From Patescibacteria group bacterium (GTDB taxonomy: Bacteria; Patescibacteriota; Minisyncoccia; Phycocordibacterales; UBA918), in NCBI GenBank assembly GCA_040386275.1, contig JAZKFU010000002.1, positions 16,858 through 80,857 of the forward strand: a stretch of 64,000 bases of DNA, given 5' to 3'. Shown here in pieces: positions 15,859 through 57,981 of this stretch. How positions within the stretch are numbered: the stretch's first letter is position 1; every line of letters begins with the position of its first letter. The notes beneath the pieces were generated by a model. It searched no databases and was not told the origin of the DNA. It saw only the letters and a program-made list of their open reading frames with translations. A program made the translations under genes and the position numbers.

Positions 15859-15945
15859 GGAGAAGTGTCAGAGTGGTCTATCGTGTTTCCTTGCTAAGGA
15901 AATAGGGGTTTGCGCCCCTCGGAGGTTCGAATCCTCTCTTCTCCG
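15859..15945 (+). tRNA. tRNA-Ser, anticodon GCU
   Basis: Acceptor GGAGAAG/CTTCTCC, anticodon loop TTGCTAA, long variable arm, T-arm GGAGG-TTCGAAT-CCTCT, discriminator G, no CCA. Confidence 0.8.
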
Positions 15946-16242
15946 CAAATACCAAAACCCAAACAAAGCCTAAGCTTTGTTTGGGTTTTGTTGTATTTGC
16001 GCGAGAAGAGAGGATTCGAAAAGGTTGCCAGCTATTTTGCAAAAATAGCGACTGTCAATTGAGCGAGCGTTATAAAAATTTATTTTTATAACCGAGTGAA
16101 AGCAGACAGAAAGCTCTGCTTACAACCTATACTGGTCTGTAAGCAGAGCTTTCTTTCACTGCATTCGCAACATAAATAAAAGTAAATTTTTTATTTAGTT
16201 ACTCATTTGTGAAAGTAACAACCGAATCCTCTCTTCTCCGCG
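15946..16242 (+). repeat. tRNA-3'-end composite repeat unit (subfamily 1) downstream of tRNA-Ser(GCU)
   Basis: T1 hairpin AAAACCCAAACAAAGC-CTAA-GCTTTGTTTGGGTTTT (15954-15989). Inverted tRNA 3' copy GCGCGAGAAGAGAGGATTCGAA (15999-16020). Core AAGGTTGCCAGCTATTTTGCAAAAATAGCGACTG plus long hairpin AGAAAGCTCTGCTTACA / TGTAAGCAGAGCTTTCT. Direct copy CCGAATCCTCTCTTCTCCGC (16222-16242). Confidence 0.6.
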
Positions 16243-18575: not shown

Positions 18576-18709
18576 TCTATACTGACGAGCGTCCAGGGAG
18601 GACTTGCCCAGTGGGTAAAACATGAACTGCTTCATGTTTTACCGCGTAGCGAGGCAGACACGAGGCCAATCTCTCTGCAGGGCGACAATTTGAACGAAGT
18701 GAATATACT

Positions 18710-18796
18710 GGAGGATTGGCCGAGTGGCTGAAGGCAGCGGTTTACTAAACCGCCAGAGGGTAAAACTTCTCGTGAGTTCGAATCTCACATCCTCCG
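18710..18796 (+). tRNA. Type-II tRNA, Ser-like, with anticodon loop TTACTAA (apparent anticodon ACU)
   Basis: Acceptor GGAGGAT/ATCCTCC, Ser-like D-arm GCCGAGTGGCTGAAGGC, anticodon stem GCGGT/ACCGC, 18-nt variable arm, T-arm GTGAG-TTCGAAT-CTCAC, discriminator G. Confidence 0.65.
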
Positions 18797-18957
18797 CACA
18801 TACCAAAACCCAAACAAAGCTTAGGCTTTGTTTGGGTTTTGTTGTATGCGCGCGAAGATGTGAGATTCGAAGCCCGATTGAGATATTTTGGAGCGTAGCG
18901 AACATAAATATCCAATTGGGGTACTGATCATGTAAGGTTCGAATCTCACATCCTCCG
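18797..18957 (+). repeat. tRNA-3'-end composite repeat unit SerL-1 (subfamily 2)
   Basis: T1 hairpin 18805-18840, nearly identical to the unit at 15954. Inverted copy GCGCGCGAAGATGTGAGATTCGAA (18848-18871). Core contains GGAGCGTAGCGAA. Direct copy GGTTCGAATCTCACATCCTCCG (18936-18957). Confidence 0.6.
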
Positions 18958-19158
18958 CCCGTATAAAATACCGCCTGTAAGGGCGGTTATTTTATTGGGC
19001 GGAGGATGAGCGAGTGACTAATGTCACTCGCGGTGAGATTCGAAAGACGGAAGCATGTCGCTCTGCGACAGCTGAGTCGGGGTCGAGAGTACTTACTAGA
19101 ATCAGAGCGTAGCGAATGATTATAGTTAGTAACTCGTGACCGAATCTCACATCCTCCG
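18958..19158 (+). repeat. tRNA-3'-end composite repeat unit SerL-2 (subfamily 2), in tandem
   Basis: Hairpin AAAATACCGCC-TGTAA-GGGCGGTTATTTT. Inverted copy GGGCGGAGGATG-[AGCGAGTGACTAATGTCACTCGC]-GGTGAGATTCGAA (18997-19044). Core AGACGGAAGCATGTCGCTCTGCGACAG...GTCGGGGTCGAGA plus GAGCGTAGCGAA. Direct copy CCGAATCTCACATCCTCCG (19140-19158). Confidence 0.6.
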
Positions 19159-19196
19159 CCCGCATAATCATCAATAAATTTGATATAATTAAAAAC

Positions 19197-19523
19197 ATGT
19201 CAATAGAAAAATTAAACCATAGCAGTCAAAATGAAAGTGACTTTGAGCAAAGAATGCAGGTTGAATACATCTCTCATATAATCGATAGTTTGATTAAAAT
19301 TGAAGTTTCAGTAACTGACCTCGAAGACAGGGATCATTTAAAAGATGTTCTGTCACAATCTCGATACGATTATGAGGAGATGCCTGAATCTCATATGGAT
19401 GAAAGTGAATTAGCGAAAGAAAAAGAGGCCTTACATGCGCTTGCTGAATTGGTGGGTAACCCTGAATTATCAAATGACCAAAGGGAAGAACTAATTAAGC
19501 AGAGACTTTCAAGCTGGTTCTAA
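19197..19523 (+). CDS. Hypothetical acidic protein, 108 aa, carried inside the tandem repeat array
   Basis: ORF flanked by direct copies of the tRNA 3' end. Acidic and helical, with no known motif. Confidence 0.45.
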   Translation: MSIEKLNHSSQNESDFEQRMQVEYISHIIDSLIKIEVSVTDLEDRDHLKDVLSQSRYDYEEMPESHMDESELAKEKEALHALAELVGNPELSNDQREELIKQRLSSWF

Positions 19524-19544
19524 CATCGTCCCATAACGCCCGCA

Positions 19545-19770
19545 AATACCAAAACCCAAACAAAGCCTAAGCTTTGTTTGGGTTTTGTTGTATGTGCGCG
19601 AGGATGTGAGATTCGAAAGGCACAGGCATGTTTTTACTCTTCCTAAAGTAAAAACAGCGGGAGAAACAGTGTCTAAACACTGTTTCTCGGGTAGCGAACA
19701 CTTAGTAGAATCTGCACGCAGTGCAAGATTATACTTAGTGATTCGTGAACGAATCTCACATCCGTGTACC
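19545..19770 (+). repeat. tRNA-3'-end composite repeat unit SerL-3 (subfamily 2)
   Basis: Remnant CGCCCGCAAATACC, then T1 hairpin 19551-19586 identical to 15954-15989. Inverted copy GTGCGCGAGGATGTGAGATTCGAA (19594-19617). Core has GGGTAGCGAACACTTAGTAGA...TTAGTGATTCGTGA. Degenerate direct copy ACGAATCTCACATCC (19749-19763). Confidence 0.55.
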
Positions 19771-36473: not shown

Positions 36474-36690
36474 GGGTTCCGGAATCGAGTCACGAATCAC
36501 TAAGTATATTATTTCGCTACGCTCATAATCTACTAAGTGTTCTTGACCACACCTCGCGGTTTTCTTTTCTGGTAAAAAGAAAACATCGCTGCGGTCGTTC
36601 GATTCCGCCGAAAGCAAAGCAGTTTGCTTTCTGAACTCCGCAACAAAAACGTAAAACCTCTGTCAATAAAGACAGAGGTTTTACGTAATG
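36474..36690 (-). repeat. tRNA-3'-end composite repeat unit (subfamily 2) downstream of initiator-like tRNA-Met, minus orientation
   Basis: In tRNA orientation: hairpin AAAACCTCTGTC-TTTATT-GACAGAGGTTTT; inverted copy TTGCGG-[AGTTCAGAAAGCAAACTGCTTTGCTTTC]-GGCGGAATCGAA; core with GAGCGTAGCGAA...TTAGTGATTCGTGA; direct copy CTCGATTCCGGAACCC (plus 36474-36489). Confidence 0.55.
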
Positions 36691-36761
36691 TTGCGGGTTC
36701 CGGAATCGAACCGGAGTCTGGAGGTTATGAGCCTCCCGAGGTACCTCTCCTCTAACCCGCT
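36691..36761 (-). tRNA. tRNA-Met (CAU), initiator-like
   Basis: Anticodon loop CTCATAA, A1:A72 mismatch, A11:U24 in the D-stem, T-arm TCCGG-TTCGATT-CCGGA, no CCA. Confidence 0.7.
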
Positions 36762-37845: not shown

Positions 37846-37919
37846 GCGGGCGTAGCTCAGCTGGTTAGAGCGCTTCCCTGTCACGGAAGAGGCCGTGGGT
37901 TCGAATCCCATCGCTCGCG
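37846..37919 (+). tRNA. tRNA-Asp, anticodon GUC
   Basis: Acceptor GCGGGCG/CGCTCGC, anticodon stem CTTCC/GGAAG, loop CTGTCAC, T-arm GTGGG-TTCGAAT-CCCAT, discriminator G. Confidence 0.8.
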
Positions 37920-38084
37920 CAAATGAAAGAGCCCTTCGGGGCTTTTTCGTTTACGCGAGCGAAAGAAAGCGCCTGCGCGCTTTCTGGTGGGATTCGAAAG
38001 CCGGAGTCATGTCGCCCTGCGACAGACGAGACGGGGTCGCGAAAATTTCTGAAAGAAATTATTTGTGACCGAATCCCATCGCTC
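37920..38084 (+). repeat. tRNA-3'-end composite repeat unit (subfamily 2) downstream of tRNA-Asp
   Basis: Hairpin AAAGAGCCC-TTCG-GGGCTTTTT. Inverted copy CGCGAGCG-[AAAGAAAGCGCCTGCGCGCTTTCTGGT]-GGGATTCGAA (37954-37998). Core AGCCGGAGTCATGTCGCCCTGCGACAGACGAGACGGGGTCGCGA. Direct copy CCGAATCCCATCGCTC (38069-38084). Confidence 0.6.
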
Positions 38085-46287: not shown

Positions 46288-46443
46288 TGCCTGATCGTCT
46301 AATGGTAAGCAAAGCTTTCTTGAACGGCACTCAGACAATACATACAAGCAAGCTTTAATGTAAGTCTTCGTTTGTTCAAGTAGGACTCTGGTTTTTGGTA
46401 CCAGCTATTGAGGAAAGAATTCTAAGAATTCGAGTCTCATAGG
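46288..46443 (+). pseudogene. Degraded duplicate of tRNA-Gln interrupted in the D-loop by a 74-nt insertion
   Basis: TGCCTGATCGTCTAATGGTA matches the tRNA-Gln 5' part. After the 46308-46381 insertion, AGGACTCTGGTTTTTGGTACCAGCTATTG continues (anticodon arm intact), but the T-arm and acceptor 3' strand are divergent (GAATTCTAAGAATTCGAGTCTCATAGG). Confidence 0.45.
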
Positions 46444-46456
46444 AAACTAAATTAAT

Positions 46457-46527
46457 TGCCTGATCGTCTAATGGTAGGACTCTGGTTTTTGGTACCAGCT
46501 ATTGGGGTTCGAGTCCCTGTCAGGCAG
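46457..46527 (+). tRNA. tRNA-Gln, anticodon UUG
   Basis: Acceptor TGCCTGA/TCAGGCA, anticodon stem CTGGT/ACCAG, loop TTTTGGT, T-loop TTCGAGT, discriminator G, no CCA. Confidence 0.8.
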
Positions 46528-46763
46528 CGAGTAGAAAAGACATCCCTCGGGATGTTTTTTCGTATCGCTGCCTGACAGGCGCAGCTTTCTGAAAGAAAGC
46601 GTCTGCGCGGACTCGAAAAGGTTGCCAGCTATTTTGAAAAAATAGCGACTGATAATTGAATGAGTGAAATGAAAATTTATTTTCATTTCCGAGTGAATGC
46701 AATCAGGAAGCTTTGCTTACAACCTGTACTGAAGCTGTAAGCTTCGAGTCCCTGTCAGGCAGC
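46528..46763 (+). repeat. tRNA-3'-end composite repeat unit (subfamily 1) downstream of tRNA-Gln
   Basis: Hairpin AAAAGACATCCC-TCGG-GATGTTTTTT. Inverted copy CGCTGCCTGACAGG-[CGCAGCTTTCTGAAAGAAAGCGTCTGCGC]-GGACTCGAA (46566-46617). Core AAGGTTGCCAGCTATTTTGAAAAAATAGCGACTG...GAGTGAA...GCTTACAACCTGTACTGAAGCTGTAAGC shares about 85% with the unit at 16021-16160. Direct copy TTCGAGTCCCTGTCAGGCAGC (46743-46763). Confidence 0.6.
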
Positions 46764-47606: not shown

Positions 47607-48407
47607 ATGGTACCATCAGTTCACATGAATTCCTCAAGTATAACCTTACCTACTACCATTGATGAAGTGATTGCGCATTTAGATGCTATCGTATTAACGT
47701 GTGAAGCTACGGGTTGTCGGATGGGTTATTTCCCCGCAATGTACAATCGGGTCACGAGACAAGTTAAGCAGCGCATCCTCGAAGGGTCTTTTGAAGATAA
47801 CGAACGCATGGAGCGGTTTGATGTTATTTTTGCTAACCGGTACTTAGTCGCGTACTATGCGTACGCCCAAAATAAGCCGTGTTCTGAATCGTGGAAAATA
47901 ACGTTTGAGGCGTCTAAAAAATGGAGCCCAATGGTGATTCAGCATTTGATTGCCAGTATGAATGCACACATTTGTTTAGATCTGGGTATATCAGCGGCAG
48001 AAACCGAAACACACAATTTACTGTCACTAAAAAATGACTTTGATCAGGTTAATGACATATTAGATTCACTGATTGAAGAAGTTGAAGCAGAACTTCGAGA
48101 AATATTTCATCCACTGACAACCTTTGATAAAATAACGGGAAACTCATATTGGCCCATTGCTCATCTGGGCATTATCAAATCTCGTACTGATGCTTGGCAT
48201 GTAGCTGAAGCATACGCCCAACTACAAACAGATAAAGAACGACAAATATTCATTCAGTTGCGTGATCATCACGTGGCGGTGATTGGAAAGAGGATTCTGC
48301 AACCGCCTAAACTGGTACGACTGCTGGTCGGAAAGGTGCGTGATTTTGAGAAAGGTACGGTTGCGGATAAAGTACACATTATGAATCGGAAAATTGTTCG
48401 CAACTAA
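47607..48407 (+). CDS. Hypothetical protein, 266 aa
   Basis: ORF only. Predicted helical with no recognised motif. Confidence 0.5.
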   Translation: MVPSVHMNSSSITLPTTIDEVIAHLDAIVLTCEATGCRMGYFPAMYNRVTRQVKQRILEGSFEDNERMERFDVIFANRYLVAYYAYAQNKPCSESWKITFEASKKWSPMVIQHLIASMNAHICLDLGISAAETETHNLLSLKNDFDQVNDILDSLIEEVEAELREIFHPLTTFDKITGNSYWPIAHLGIIKSRTDAWHVAEAYAQLQTDKERQIFIQLRDHHVAVIGKRILQPPKLVRLLVGKVRDFEKGTVADKVHIMNRKIVRN

Positions 48408-56638: not shown

Positions 56639-56718
56639 ATATTTTTATAATATTCATTATAAAAAAAATAGTAATCCACATTACCCATCGGGTGTGGAGT
56701 GCGGTATACTGTAGGTAT

Positions 56719-57981
56719 ATGAACAGGTATACACAAAGTAATAGTGGCTTTACAGCCAAAGCGGCATTATTAACAGCAGTAATTGCAGGATCTTTATTTT
56801 TTATTAGTACTAGCGCCAGTGCGGCAACGGTTTGTACGTTTGAACGTGATTTGCAAATGGGTGTTGTGGGCGAAGATGTGCGATGTTTGCAACAATATCT
56901 TAATGCCAATGGGTTTGTTATTACTATCACGGGCGGAGGATCACCCGGAAAGGAAACGACTGAGTTTAAAACCTTAACTGAAGCAGCGTTAATTAAATGG
57001 CAACAAGCCAATAAATTGTCTCCGGCAAGTGGATATTTTGGACCTCGATCACAGGCTGTATACGCTACACTGGTAAACGATACTACGGTAACTACGCCAG
57101 TAGCGACTACTACCACTCCTACGACTGGCGGCATTCTTTCACCAGCTGATCTTTTGAAAAAAGTGGAAGAATTAAAAACACAGTTGTCGGGCAGTATTGT
57201 CAGTACTCCAGCTCCAACCACTCCTACCACACCAGCATCTACGGTGAGTTCTGGTGGTGCCAAGCTTCTTAAAGAAATTACAAAGTCACTTCGTGAAGCC
57301 GAAGAAGAAGTGAGTGATAATGATGATGCGGAAGATTACGAAGATGCAATTGATAGTCTCACCGACGCACGTGATAATTTCTACACAGCGGTTCTCGCGT
57401 TTCTTTCTGGTGATGAGGACGAAGCTGAGGATGCTTTAAACGAAGTGGAAGATAGTGTTGAAGACGCTCTTGATGCAGTTGGTGCTTCAAGTGAAGCTAA
57501 TGAAGCCGAAGATTTAATTGATGAAGTTGATGATGCTATTGATGAAGCGGAAGATGAAATAGAAGAAGCAGACGCTGATGGTAAAGCCACCAGTGAAGCC
57601 GAAGACATATTAGATGAAGCGAGTGACGTATTAGATGAAGCTAAAACTGCGTTGGAGGATGAAGACTATGACGATGCGCTTGATCTAGCAGAAGAAGCCG
57701 AAGATTTAGTGAATGATGCCATTGACGCTATTGGATCAAATGGTGGTGATGTTGAAGATGAATTAGATGACGCTCGAAATGAATTAGACGATGTACGAGA
57801 AGACGTGGATGCGGCCGAAGATGATGGCGAAGATATGGAAGATGCACAAGAGTATTTAGATGAGGCGGAAGATTTATTGGATGATGCGGAAGAGGCTCTC
57901 GATAATGATGATGAGGATGAAGCGGAAGAGTTGATTGAGGAGGCTTTGGACCTAATCGCCGACGCTTCAGACGAACTTTAG
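56719..57981 (+). CDS. Secreted peptidoglycan-binding-domain protein with Thr/Pro linker and about 250-aa acidic (D/E/A) repeat tail
   Basis: Signal peptide ...STSASA-ATV. PG_binding_1-like 'LQMGVVGEDVRCLQQYLNANGF'. Long run of '(D/E)-A-E-D' helical repeats. Confidence 0.6.
   Translation: MNRYTQSNSGFTAKAALLTAVIAGSLFFISTSASAATVCTFERDLQMGVVGEDVRCLQQYLNANGFVITITGGGSPGKETTEFKTLTEAALIKWQQANKLSPASGYFGPRSQAVYATLVNDTTVTTPVATTTTPTTGGILSPADLLKKVEELKTQLSGSIVSTPAPTTPTTPASTVSSGGAKLLKEITKSLREAEEEVSDNDDAEDYEDAIDSLTDARDNFYTAVLAFLSGDEDEAEDALNEVEDSVEDALDAVGASSEANEAEDLIDEVDDAIDEAEDEIEEADADGKATSEAEDILDEASDVLDEAKTALEDEDYDDALDLAEEAEDLVNDAIDAIGSNGGDVEDELDDARNELDDVREDVDAAEDDGEDMEDAQEYLDEAEDLLDDAEEALDNDDEDEAEELIEEALDLIADASDEL

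Follow-up and report, generated by a model that had tools for sequence, protein, structure and literature searches.

Hairpin-rich units at the 3′-ends of tRNA genes in Patescibacteria: architecture, polarity and a tentative cassette model

Introduction

The described elements closest to the subject of this report are tRNA-targeting integrative elements (phages, integrative and conjugative elements, and islands with the attachment (att) sites of tyrosine integrases), integron attC sites and the attP site of CTX phage, palindromic elements derived from IS200/IS605 together with the REP/REPIN-RAYT systems, mosaic repeats such as BIME, BOX, Correia, RUP and ERIC, and the tandem inversion duplications of Salmonella. 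A direct repeat of a tRNA 3′-end that starts in the T-loop is the classic footprint of integrase-mediated insertion, and the duplications described in Salmonella, which form by snap-back at quasi-palindromes, are large, unstable and selected. The subject here is a unit at positions 36474-36690 (minus strand), behind an initiator-like tRNA-Met gene in a 64,000-nucleotide stretch of a Patescibacteria group bacterium (contig JAZKFU010000002.1), hereafter termed the window. It belongs to a family of hairpin-rich post-tRNA modules that is apparently undescribed; full-text literature searches returned no description of such elements. Units of this family are non-coding, approximately 90-400 nucleotides (nt) in size, and located at the 3′-end of tRNA genes. 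Each begins with its own T, which reaches from the T-loop to 0-3 nt beyond the gene; a palindromic trailer/terminator hairpin, T′ and an optional core follow. T denotes the last ~20 nt of the tRNA (from C56 of the T-loop to the 3′-end), a sequence that is copied downstream; T′ is the inverted copy of the tRNA 3′-end and usually carries a conserved small hairpin; and the core, made of interchangeable hairpin modules, is the structured part between T′ and the distal T. Loci numbered L are stretches fetched from metagenomes and metagenome-assembled genomes (MAGs), 80 of which are orthologous and were obtained from a metagenome scan with the NTP-transferase encoded in the window (74-91% amino-acid identity).

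The units lack at least one defining feature of each of these systems. Like tRNA-targeting integrative elements, they have a direct 3′-end repeat from the T-loop, a tRNA rebuilt by the element's copy and left intact, tandem accretion at one tRNA, occupancy that is polymorphic among relatives, and an empty-site flank that continues after the distal repeat (L068 compared with L083/L084, see below). Unlike those elements, they measure only 90-400 nt, encode no integrase or any open reading frame (ORF), and regularly contain an inverted att copy fused to a palindromic terminator; in addition, one core family serves many tRNAs, with arms matching each.

Integron attC and CTX-phage attP are imperfect palindromes with a feature protruding from one strand and a variable terminal structure; they also form tandem cassette-like arrays with excision, permutation and exchange, and their structure is conserved beyond sequence. 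The units share these traits by analogy, not homology: a small hairpin splits the T′ strand only, the cores vary, and arrays reach three units. In contrast, no IntI, attI or Pc platform and no Xer/dif context was found in the 64-kb window. The R/L-boxes of attC (RYYYAAC/GTTRRRY) are not generally present, as the arms begin GTTCGAAT.. and end ..ATTCGAAC, so that only the GTT/AAC triplets agree; moreover, the palindrome arms are the tRNA 3′-end, differing with each tRNA, and the cassettes are mostly non-coding.

The IS200/IS605-derived elements and REP/REPIN-RAYT resemble the units in being non-autonomous, hairpin-rich, strictly oriented and positioned 3′ of a defined target, with an internal segment complementary to the flank in a guide-like arrangement. 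The units fit IS200/IS605 in lying 3′ of T with a strict orientation, whereas the repetition of the target at the far end does not fit; the complementarity covers ~20 nt rather than 4, and no TnpA (among the window ORFs) or RAYT was identified. The mosaic repeats likewise consist of small palindromic modules that occur in varying order, nested, and often at or as terminators, but they have fixed ends unrelated to the neighboring gene, whereas the outer arms of the units copy the adjacent tRNA and their location in this lineage is essentially always behind a tRNA. Finally, the Salmonella duplications share the direct-inverted-direct triplication, whose junctions likewise fall at two short palindromes; unlike them, the units have arms of 20 nt, are evolutionarily persistent and are filled with conserved modules.

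Structure of the unit behind the tRNA-Met gene

The tRNA-Met gene was called by both ARAGORN and Rfam. The initial annotation of this DNA, made from the sequence alone, had termed it initiator-like, and this is a fair description because the A1xA72 mismatch and A11:U24 are present, along with only two of the three typical initiator G:C pairs. A promoter-like site (TGGACA-16-TATACT, 36806-36779) was identified by a consensus scan ~17 nt upstream of the gene. In the orientation of the tRNA, the features of the locus are:

36691-36761, minus strand: initiator-like tRNA-Met (CAT) (ARAGORN; Rfam tRNA, 55.5 bits)
36649-36686, minus strand: palindromic trailer and terminator-like hairpin with a 16-pair stem and the loop TTTATT, then a T-run (consensus scan)
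36598-36643, minus strand: T′ (TTGCGG-A-GTTC ... CGGAATCGAA), past the terminator T-run (11-nt exact inverted match)
36610-36631, minus strand: "split" hairpin GAAAGCAAA-CTGC-TTTGCTTTC inside T′, near the complement of the acceptor/T-stem junction (conserved in relatives)
36549-36597, minus strand: 5′ part of the core (P1/P2), consisting of CGACCGCAGCGATG, the hairpin TTTTCTTTTT-ACCA-GAAAAGAAAA and CCGCGAGGTGTG (RNA/DNA folds; homologous segments in relatives)
36490-36548, minus strand: 3′ part of the core (P3, "subfamily 2"), the long hairpin GGTCAAGAACACTTAGTAGATTAT-GAGCGTAGCGAA-ATAATATACTTAGTGATTCGTGAC (nhmmer match 36548-36489, E = 8.5e-17; covariation)
36474-36488, minus strand: distal direct copy of the tRNA 3′-end, TCGATTCCGGAACCC (15 nt, identical to 36695-36709 within the tRNA)

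The initial annotation had listed four elements in this order, and all of them were recovered. The first, a perfect hairpin with the arms AAAACCTCTGTC (36682-36671) and GACAGAGGTTTT (36664-36653), is lengthened by the consensus scan to 16 pairs (36686-36649) and is directly followed by TTTTGTTGCG; it is considered terminator-like because of this stem and T-run. A G+C-containing stem, a T-run and a position directly after the gene are the marks of an intrinsic terminator, here as a consensus match only. The same hairpin is found in L019/L020 with compensatory changes. The second element, the split inverted tRNA 3′-end, lies in two pieces, TTGCGG(A)GTTC at 36643-36633 and CGGAATCGAA at 36607-36598, around the GAAAGCAAA/TTTGCTTTC hairpin; without this hairpin, T′ is the reverse complement of TTCGATTCCGGAACCCGCAA except for one extra A. 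The terminator hairpin, T and T′ together form one long palindrome.

The core as a whole spans 36597-36490. Its terminal hairpin, which had been reported to recur at 19700-19750, is similar to 19696-19748 (53 nt, 83%) and to 19074-19140 (67 nt, 76%), both on the opposite strand, and GAGCGTAGCGAA occurs three times in the window compared with 0.17 expected. The fourth element, the direct copy, had been given as the 16-mer CTCGATTCCGGAACCC, whose first base is C where the tRNA has T; the 15-nt TCGATTCCGGAACCC is identical, starting in the T-loop and stopping 5 nt (GCAAC) short of the 3′-end. It has two matches in the window against 0.06 expected, a number reached in 0 of 100 shuffles.

The NTP-transferase and a 211-amino-acid protein of the window are present in identical form in two MAGs at NCBI and in Logan contigs, and the Met unit varies among such strains. 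L096 and L097, which share the identical 211-amino-acid neighbor, contain an additional composite module of 83-87 nt at the base of P3, whereas the unit of the window has the canonical uninterrupted form, as also found in L030. In the near-identical strain L096, the distal T has lost 7 nt in one deletion and carries two substitutions, and none of these changes is compensated in T′.

Polarity and occurrence of the units

The position of copies relative to the tRNA was surveyed for 170 non-redundant tRNAs (window and fetched loci) with at least 300 nt on both sides, with copies of at least 11 nt within 500 nt being counted. A direct copy of the 3′-end was found downstream of 51 tRNAs and an inverted copy downstream of 33, while neither was found upstream of any. 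The direct copies are 15-23 nt in length, the Met unit having the shortest size of this range. The polarity is therefore strongly supported, and the earlier claim that the architecture is independent of strand and strictly polarized relative to the tRNA is borne out by these counts.

The edges of the distal copy are well defined. The left edge is sharp and falls at C56 of the T-loop in 21 cases, in which the core ends with ...TCGTGAC; a second class starts at G53/T54 (14+5 cases) and has a core ending with GTACTG and a small hairpin whose 3′ arm is the T-loop GTTC. The right edge clusters at 0 to +3 nt beyond the gene end. In L068-Asp and L080-Asp it runs on through the trailer, hairpin and T′, generating perfect duplicates of 75-80 nt in the arrangement (T-hairpin-T′)-core-(T-hairpin-T′), as Campbell integration into a homologous site predicts. 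A second register is seen behind many tRNA-Asp genes, in which the start of the trailer (AGTTAGG...) and not the tRNA body is duplicated.

Failure to find the core motif elsewhere had been named as a test of the initial annotation. An nhmmer profile of subfamily 2 (P3) identified 37 copies, 31 of them distinct, and all copies inspected are located 3′ of a tRNA end in the orientation of the tRNA; a strict flank-copy test was passed by 14 of the 31. Six matches are not adjacent to a tRNA called by ARAGORN: five lie behind tRNA 3′-ends that the program missed, some of them in genes with introns (see below), and the sixth is an orphan (L077) without an intact tRNA. Ten fetched loci, among them one of a Kaiserbacteria MAG, contain the exact 22-mer of the split hairpin, and 51 of the 53 distinct copies of this hairpin (AGCAAACTGCTTTGCT and variants) outside L007 reside in T′ or in a trailer-type equivalent behind a tRNA. 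In copies with two mappable flanks, the split is at position ~64-66 (the acceptor/T-stem junction) in Met, Thr and Asp alike, and the two flanks are contiguous in T.

The subfamily-1 module, GCCAGCTATTTT-N4-AAAATAGCGAC, was found at eight loci in MAGs of Parcubacteria, Saccharibacteria, Kaiserbacteria and one unclassified member of the Patescibacteria. Seven of these eight matches are at intergenic sites in other Patescibacteria genomes that are not associated with tRNAs, some with other inverted arms; only L004 is behind a tRNA, with a perfect 20-nt distal copy of T. Composites of the same hairpin modules were also observed at intergenic sites without a tRNA, namely L005 2204-2830 and L011 2318-2944 (one Saccharibacteria MAG) and L007 4167-4793; these are bounded by inverted arms unrelated to tRNA (CAAATGGTCTAGG/CCTAGACCATTTG and GGAACTGCCTGAAATG/CATTTCTGGCAGTTCC). 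Identical modules of 22-27 nt thus occur in distantly related classes of Patescibacteria.

The tRNA genes of the relatives show a further peculiarity. Group I introns (Rfam RF00028, 52-67 bits) were found in L030 (3685-3912), L035 (813-1025), L043 (3667-3881) and L033 (2985-3197). Those of L030, L035 and L043 interrupt the anticodon-loop of the initiator-like tRNA-Met, and such split genes are missed by ARAGORN; an intron of tRNA-Thr in L039/L033 was assigned by eye only.

Gain, loss and exchange of units

A direct comparison of a filled and an empty site is provided by the orthologous tRNA-Met loci. In L068, the tRNA-Met reads ...CCCCGCAAC / AACATCGGACTCACC..., the stroke marking the site, and in L083/L084 approximately 200 nt are added at this point (a new hairpin, a split T′, a core and a degenerate T), after which the same flank AACATCGGACTCACC... 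follows. The pair L083 and L068 therefore represents a real insertion. The complete unit is absent from approximately two-thirds of the orthologous tRNA-Met genes, and the simplest arrangement, found in L014, is a core-less unit of 92 nt consisting of T, hairpin, split T′ and T.

Parts of the units are exchanged between relatives. L027 and L028 have an identical tRNA and T′, but the terminator hairpin between them and everything downstream are different. Behind tRNA-Thr, two terminator modules are in swapped order in L017 compared with L019/L020, within the same outer flank, and in L017 two different hairpins flank identical copies of T′. The near-identical strains L019 and L020 differ in their core allele. 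In L037 and L042, the distal T comes from another tRNA, indicating that the matching of the arms can be broken by exchange between units. The flanks of the tRNAs are synteny breakpoints in the loci compared, and the breaks coincide with units.

Breaks of another kind were observed in short-read contigs of the same organism (both ends of L100, a Logan contig; L098 and L099), which end exactly in shared palindromic hairpins or P3. The repeats fragment assemblies.

Sister units in the window

The same plan of T, trailer/terminator hairpin, T′, core and T is present behind five of the eight real tRNAs in the window, and no unit was found behind its tRNA-Ile, second tRNA-Met or tRNA-Thr. An additional "tRNA-His(atg)" called by ARAGORN at 47823-47903 is a false positive, located inside the coding region of a DUF5995 protein and not seen by Rfam. 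The four sister loci are:

15947-16241, plus strand: unit behind tRNA-Ser(GCT) (15859-15946), with hairpin, T′ (15997-16020), subfamily-1 core and distal T (16223-16241)
18798-19756, plus strand: array of three units behind tRNA-Ser(ACT) (18710-18797), with T at 18937, 19138 and 19742 and T′ at 18848, 18997 and 19593
37921-38084, plus strand: unit behind tRNA-Asp (37846-37920), with hairpin, split T′ (37954-37998), short subfamily-2 core and distal T (38070-38084)
46529-46763, plus strand: unit behind tRNA-Gln (46457-46528), with hairpin, split T′ (46565-46608), subfamily-1 core and distal T (46742-46763)

In the window, the T and T′ arms always match the local tRNA, trailer included, while the core types are common to several tRNAs: subfamily 1 is found behind Ser-GCT and Gln, and subfamily 2 behind Met, Asp and Ser-ACT. 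Both Ser units have a common trailer hairpin but different cores. Since T, trailer, hairpin, the inverted trailer and T′ form one long palindrome, T′ is an inverted duplication of the gene end together with its trailer.

Several other features were noted near these loci. In the third unit of the Ser-ACT array, an insert of 375 nt (19162-19536) with an ORF (orf108, 19197-19523; acidic, without a convincing Pfam family) is positioned exactly at the junction of T and trailer; it is a possible ORF-bearing cassette because it is flanked by the 7-nt direct repeat CGCCCGC. The tRNA-Ser gene of this array, which has the unusual anticodon ACT, is separated from tRNA-Ser(GCT) by 3 kb. It is immediately preceded, at 18690-18709, by a fragment resembling the loop and stem of P3 (TTTGAACGAAGTGAATATACT), as if the remnant of an element adjoined the gene. 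A 5′-truncated pseudo-tRNA-Gln (46380-46443; 34 nt with 97% identity to 46474-46507) precedes the real tRNA-Gln by 14 nt, and its T-loop is broken by a small hairpin, GAATTC-TAA-GAATTC, ahead of TTCGAGTC. The genes of the window are bacterial housekeeping genes and type IV pilus genes; one ORF (56692-57981) contains long acidic imperfect repeats (GAAG/GATG-rich, 57288-57958) together with PG_binding_1 and DUF4398 domains.

Comparison with sequence and family databases

The units match no family of Rfam 15: only tRNAs were identified at the gathering threshold in the window and the loci, in addition to the group I introns of the relatives, and a search at E<=10 gave only chance microRNA-like hairpins. 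Motif scans of IMG/VR returned nothing or chance matches within coding regions, a BLASTN search of the unit against phage and plasmid collections gave no match, and no larger islands bounded by the same repeat were found in the DNA examined.

Four other classifications of the locus were rejected. T′ is not a degenerate 5′-half of a tRNA or a pseudogene, as it is the exact complement of the 3′ strand (in Asp, GCGAGCG and not GCGGGCG) and runs on into sequence complementary to the trailer and hairpin. A primer-binding site of the retroviral type is likewise rejected, as no complement of CCA is present and the complementarity follows the trailer of the gene and not the mature tRNA end. The units are not short tandem repeat-spacer arrays, as guide arrays of the CRISPR or TIGR-like type would be, nor are they classical miniature inverted-repeat transposable elements, as the inverted arms are locus-specific (equal to the local tRNA) and no short target-site duplication is present.

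No tyrosine or serine integrase was found beside the att-like copies among the ~56 window ORFs scanned with Pfam; the ORFs near units in relatives encode helix-turn-helix (HTH) or LAGLIDADG proteins. One family of ~225 amino acids with an N-terminal HTH, no other domain and no relative in the PDB occurs beside tRNA-Met in L030 (4732-5416) and over 20 further loci. A LAGLIDADG endonuclease ORF is another recurrent neighbor of tRNA-Met genes in relatives (L061, 1358-2042). Both were rejected as the enzyme of the element, as they are absent from the window and not flanked by unit sequences, and the HTH ORF is otherwise unclassifiable.

A cassette model and its alternatives

The reading tentatively favored here, as possible rather than probable, is that the units are small, non-autonomous, cassette-like modules that recombine at the T-loop/3′-end of tRNA genes, in that case probably via a small self-complementary circle, and that the Met copy has decayed. 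In such a model, the package of T, hairpin, T′ and core would close into a small circle, whose T:T′ stem would be a self-complementary replica of the 3′-end of the tRNA gene, similar to a folded integron attC or CTX-phage attP. Recombination with a chromosomal tRNA, in or just after the T-loop, would insert the package, leaving the 3′-end of the tRNA intact, adding a new terminator and placing a second T distal to the core. Repeated insertions would build tandem arrays, and recombination between repeated T or T′ segments would excise, permute or swap cassettes. Host homologous recombination alone may suffice for these events, or a trans-acting enzyme of the tyrosine or HUH type may catalyze them; the arms may become matched to new tRNAs by quasi-palindrome correction of T′ against T or by exchange between units. 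What we infer is the intermediate (circular or single-stranded), the point of crossover and the recombinase, and the mechanism is plausible but unproven. The model accounts for the filled/empty pair with its new terminator, the duplicates in L068/L080, the swap between L017 and L019, the arrays and the sharp boundary in the T-loop. It is further supported by the downstream-only position of direct and inverted copies, by the identical modules in distant classes, and by L067, L085 and L088, which have their own terminator after the distal T. The core-less unit of L014, the differing hairpins of L027 and L028, the 83-87-nt indel in the Met unit, the covariation of P3 and the terminator ahead of T′ also count in its favor.

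Several observations weigh against this model. No integrase, transposase, HUH or reverse-transcriptase domain was detected by Pfam in the ~56 ORFs of the window, nor inside any unit. Classical tRNA integrases need no inverted copy, so that T′ could be assigned its role only by analogy. Simple Campbell integration does not explain how one core comes to lie behind at least seven tRNA species with matching T and T′. Many sites have T, hairpin and T′ but no core or distal T, a state that calls for later deletions or a different origin. As for the Met copy, it is probably dead, because its distal T drifts in L096 without compensation in T′; in the window it is most likely a relic, inactive and decaying.

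The initial annotation had attributed the polarity to a tRNA-directed mechanism rather than to a generic intergenic repeat. The tRNA link is strong in this lineage, where the arms match the tRNA beside them and a filled site has an empty counterpart, but it is not universal for the modules, as most subfamily-1 matches lie elsewhere. The mechanistic part of the claim, which would call for dedicated machinery, is less secure: no enzyme was found, arm matching is broken in L037/L042, the second register copies the trailer, and the Met copy is decaying. A more far-reaching form of the cassette model would place the units in a new class of mobile element, in which complementarity between nucleic acids provides the address: in a small single-stranded dumbbell-like circle, T′ would pair with the 3′ strand of the tRNA gene or present a folded replica of it and thereby direct insertion at the T-loop/3′-end, a tRNA-guided cassette exchange by a putative recombinase in which the split and core hairpins would be the parts recognized by proteins. 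This form is considered unlikely.

The main rival of the cassette model, itself doubtful, is that snap-back template switching at the terminator hairpin and the T-arm palindromes triplicated the segment with its middle inverted (T-T′-T), after which modules of the REP/BIME type filled the hairpin loops and homologous recombination shuffled them, all without tRNA-specific machinery. The minimal unit of L014 is exactly the predicted product, with its second junction inside the T-loop, and the polarity would follow automatically from the order of the two palindromes. Arms that always copy local sequence, including the trailer, and stems that are almost purely Watson-Crick, with few G.U pairs, are also expected of copied DNA palindromes, and both the core modules at non-tRNA sites of other Patescibacteria, some with other local inverted arms, and the lack of a recombinase among the window ORFs agree with such an origin. 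However, copying of the local sequence would not supply the terminator hairpin of L083, which is absent from the empty site in L068, and is difficult to reconcile with the different hairpins around identical T′ copies in L017, their swapped order in L019/L020, and the T′ that L027 and L028 share while their hairpins differ. Nor does random accumulation explain why the split hairpin occupies nearly the same position in T′ for at least four tRNA species.

Another alternative concerns the structure of the units as nucleic acids. As expected of any palindrome, each of the two strands folds much better than shuffles. In the two units folded, T′ pairs with T in a closing helix that encloses branched hairpins. 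The tRNA-sense strand reaches the greater absolute stability in both (z = -4.75 for Met and -6.2 for the other), although the z-score of the Met unit is stronger for the antisense strand (-5.8). Eighteen distinct P3 hairpins were aligned over 23 pairs. In this alignment, 97.6% of the cells are paired compared with 84% in shuffles, and 11 of the 23 pairs have changed on both sides; the covariation score is 0.425 compared with 0.161, reached in 0 of 500 shuffles, with slid controls at <=0.07. The P3 loop, GA-RC-NNN-GY-GAA, is conserved, and the R and Y of its small stem covary. G.U pairs are almost absent from the stems, except for a conserved G.U at P3 columns 7:59, beside an A.G, on the tRNA-sense strand only. 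The covariation and this sense-strand G.U therefore show that a single-stranded form of the tRNA-sense strand, either DNA or RNA, is under constraint.

These features would also suit a tRNA-like non-coding RNA, in which T′:T mimics the acceptor/T-arm "top half" (a 7-bp acceptor stem, a hairpin in place of the D- and anticodon-arms, and the T stem) and the core replaces the T-loop; read-through would produce such an RNA, tRNA enzymes would process it, and it would serve as a mimic, decoy or regulator. The split hairpin at the acceptor/T-stem junction, the closing T′:T helix with its branched hairpins, the greater absolute stability of the tRNA-sense strand, the conserved loop motifs with their covarying small stem, and the G.U and A.G pairs of the sense strand are all consistent with it. 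Nevertheless, it is improbable and less likely than the cassette model. The tRNA is separated from T′ by a 16-pair terminator and its T-run, no promoter-like site was identified within the unit by the consensus scan, the distal T of L096 drifts uncompensated, many units have no distal T or a foreign one, G.U pairs are nearly lacking, and Rfam contains no match. A role at the DNA level is argued for by the strong terminator preceding T′ and the lack of a promoter-like site; with the near-absence of G.U and the drift of the distal T, the evidence leans in this direction.

That the direct repeats are merely attL/attR remnants of larger prophages or islands in tRNA genes, later almost wholly deleted with the rest as decayed filler, is very improbable and again less likely than the cassette model: T-loop repeats and synteny breakpoints at tRNA flanks are what such scars would leave, but the units are consistently small, regularly contain an inverted copy, share a conserved covarying core between different tRNAs and genomes, are gained as packages of ~200 nt and not as remnants of something large, and match no phage or plasmid record.

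Significance

Patescibacteria have tiny, streamlined genomes, yet five of eight tRNA genes within 64 kb carry inserts, which vary among close strains. Should the units be mobile, they would be a source of rearrangement at tRNA loci that has gone unnoticed so far; they also provide a marker for strain typing and are a likely cause of assembly breaks in MAGs. If it is true that the inverted copy directs targeting, the units would be an instance of natural target choice by complementarity in a very small element, which would be of interest for the biology of mobile elements and as a possible principle of programmable insertion. Even on the least exotic reading, they constitute a new set of conserved, covarying hairpin motifs that is held by no database.

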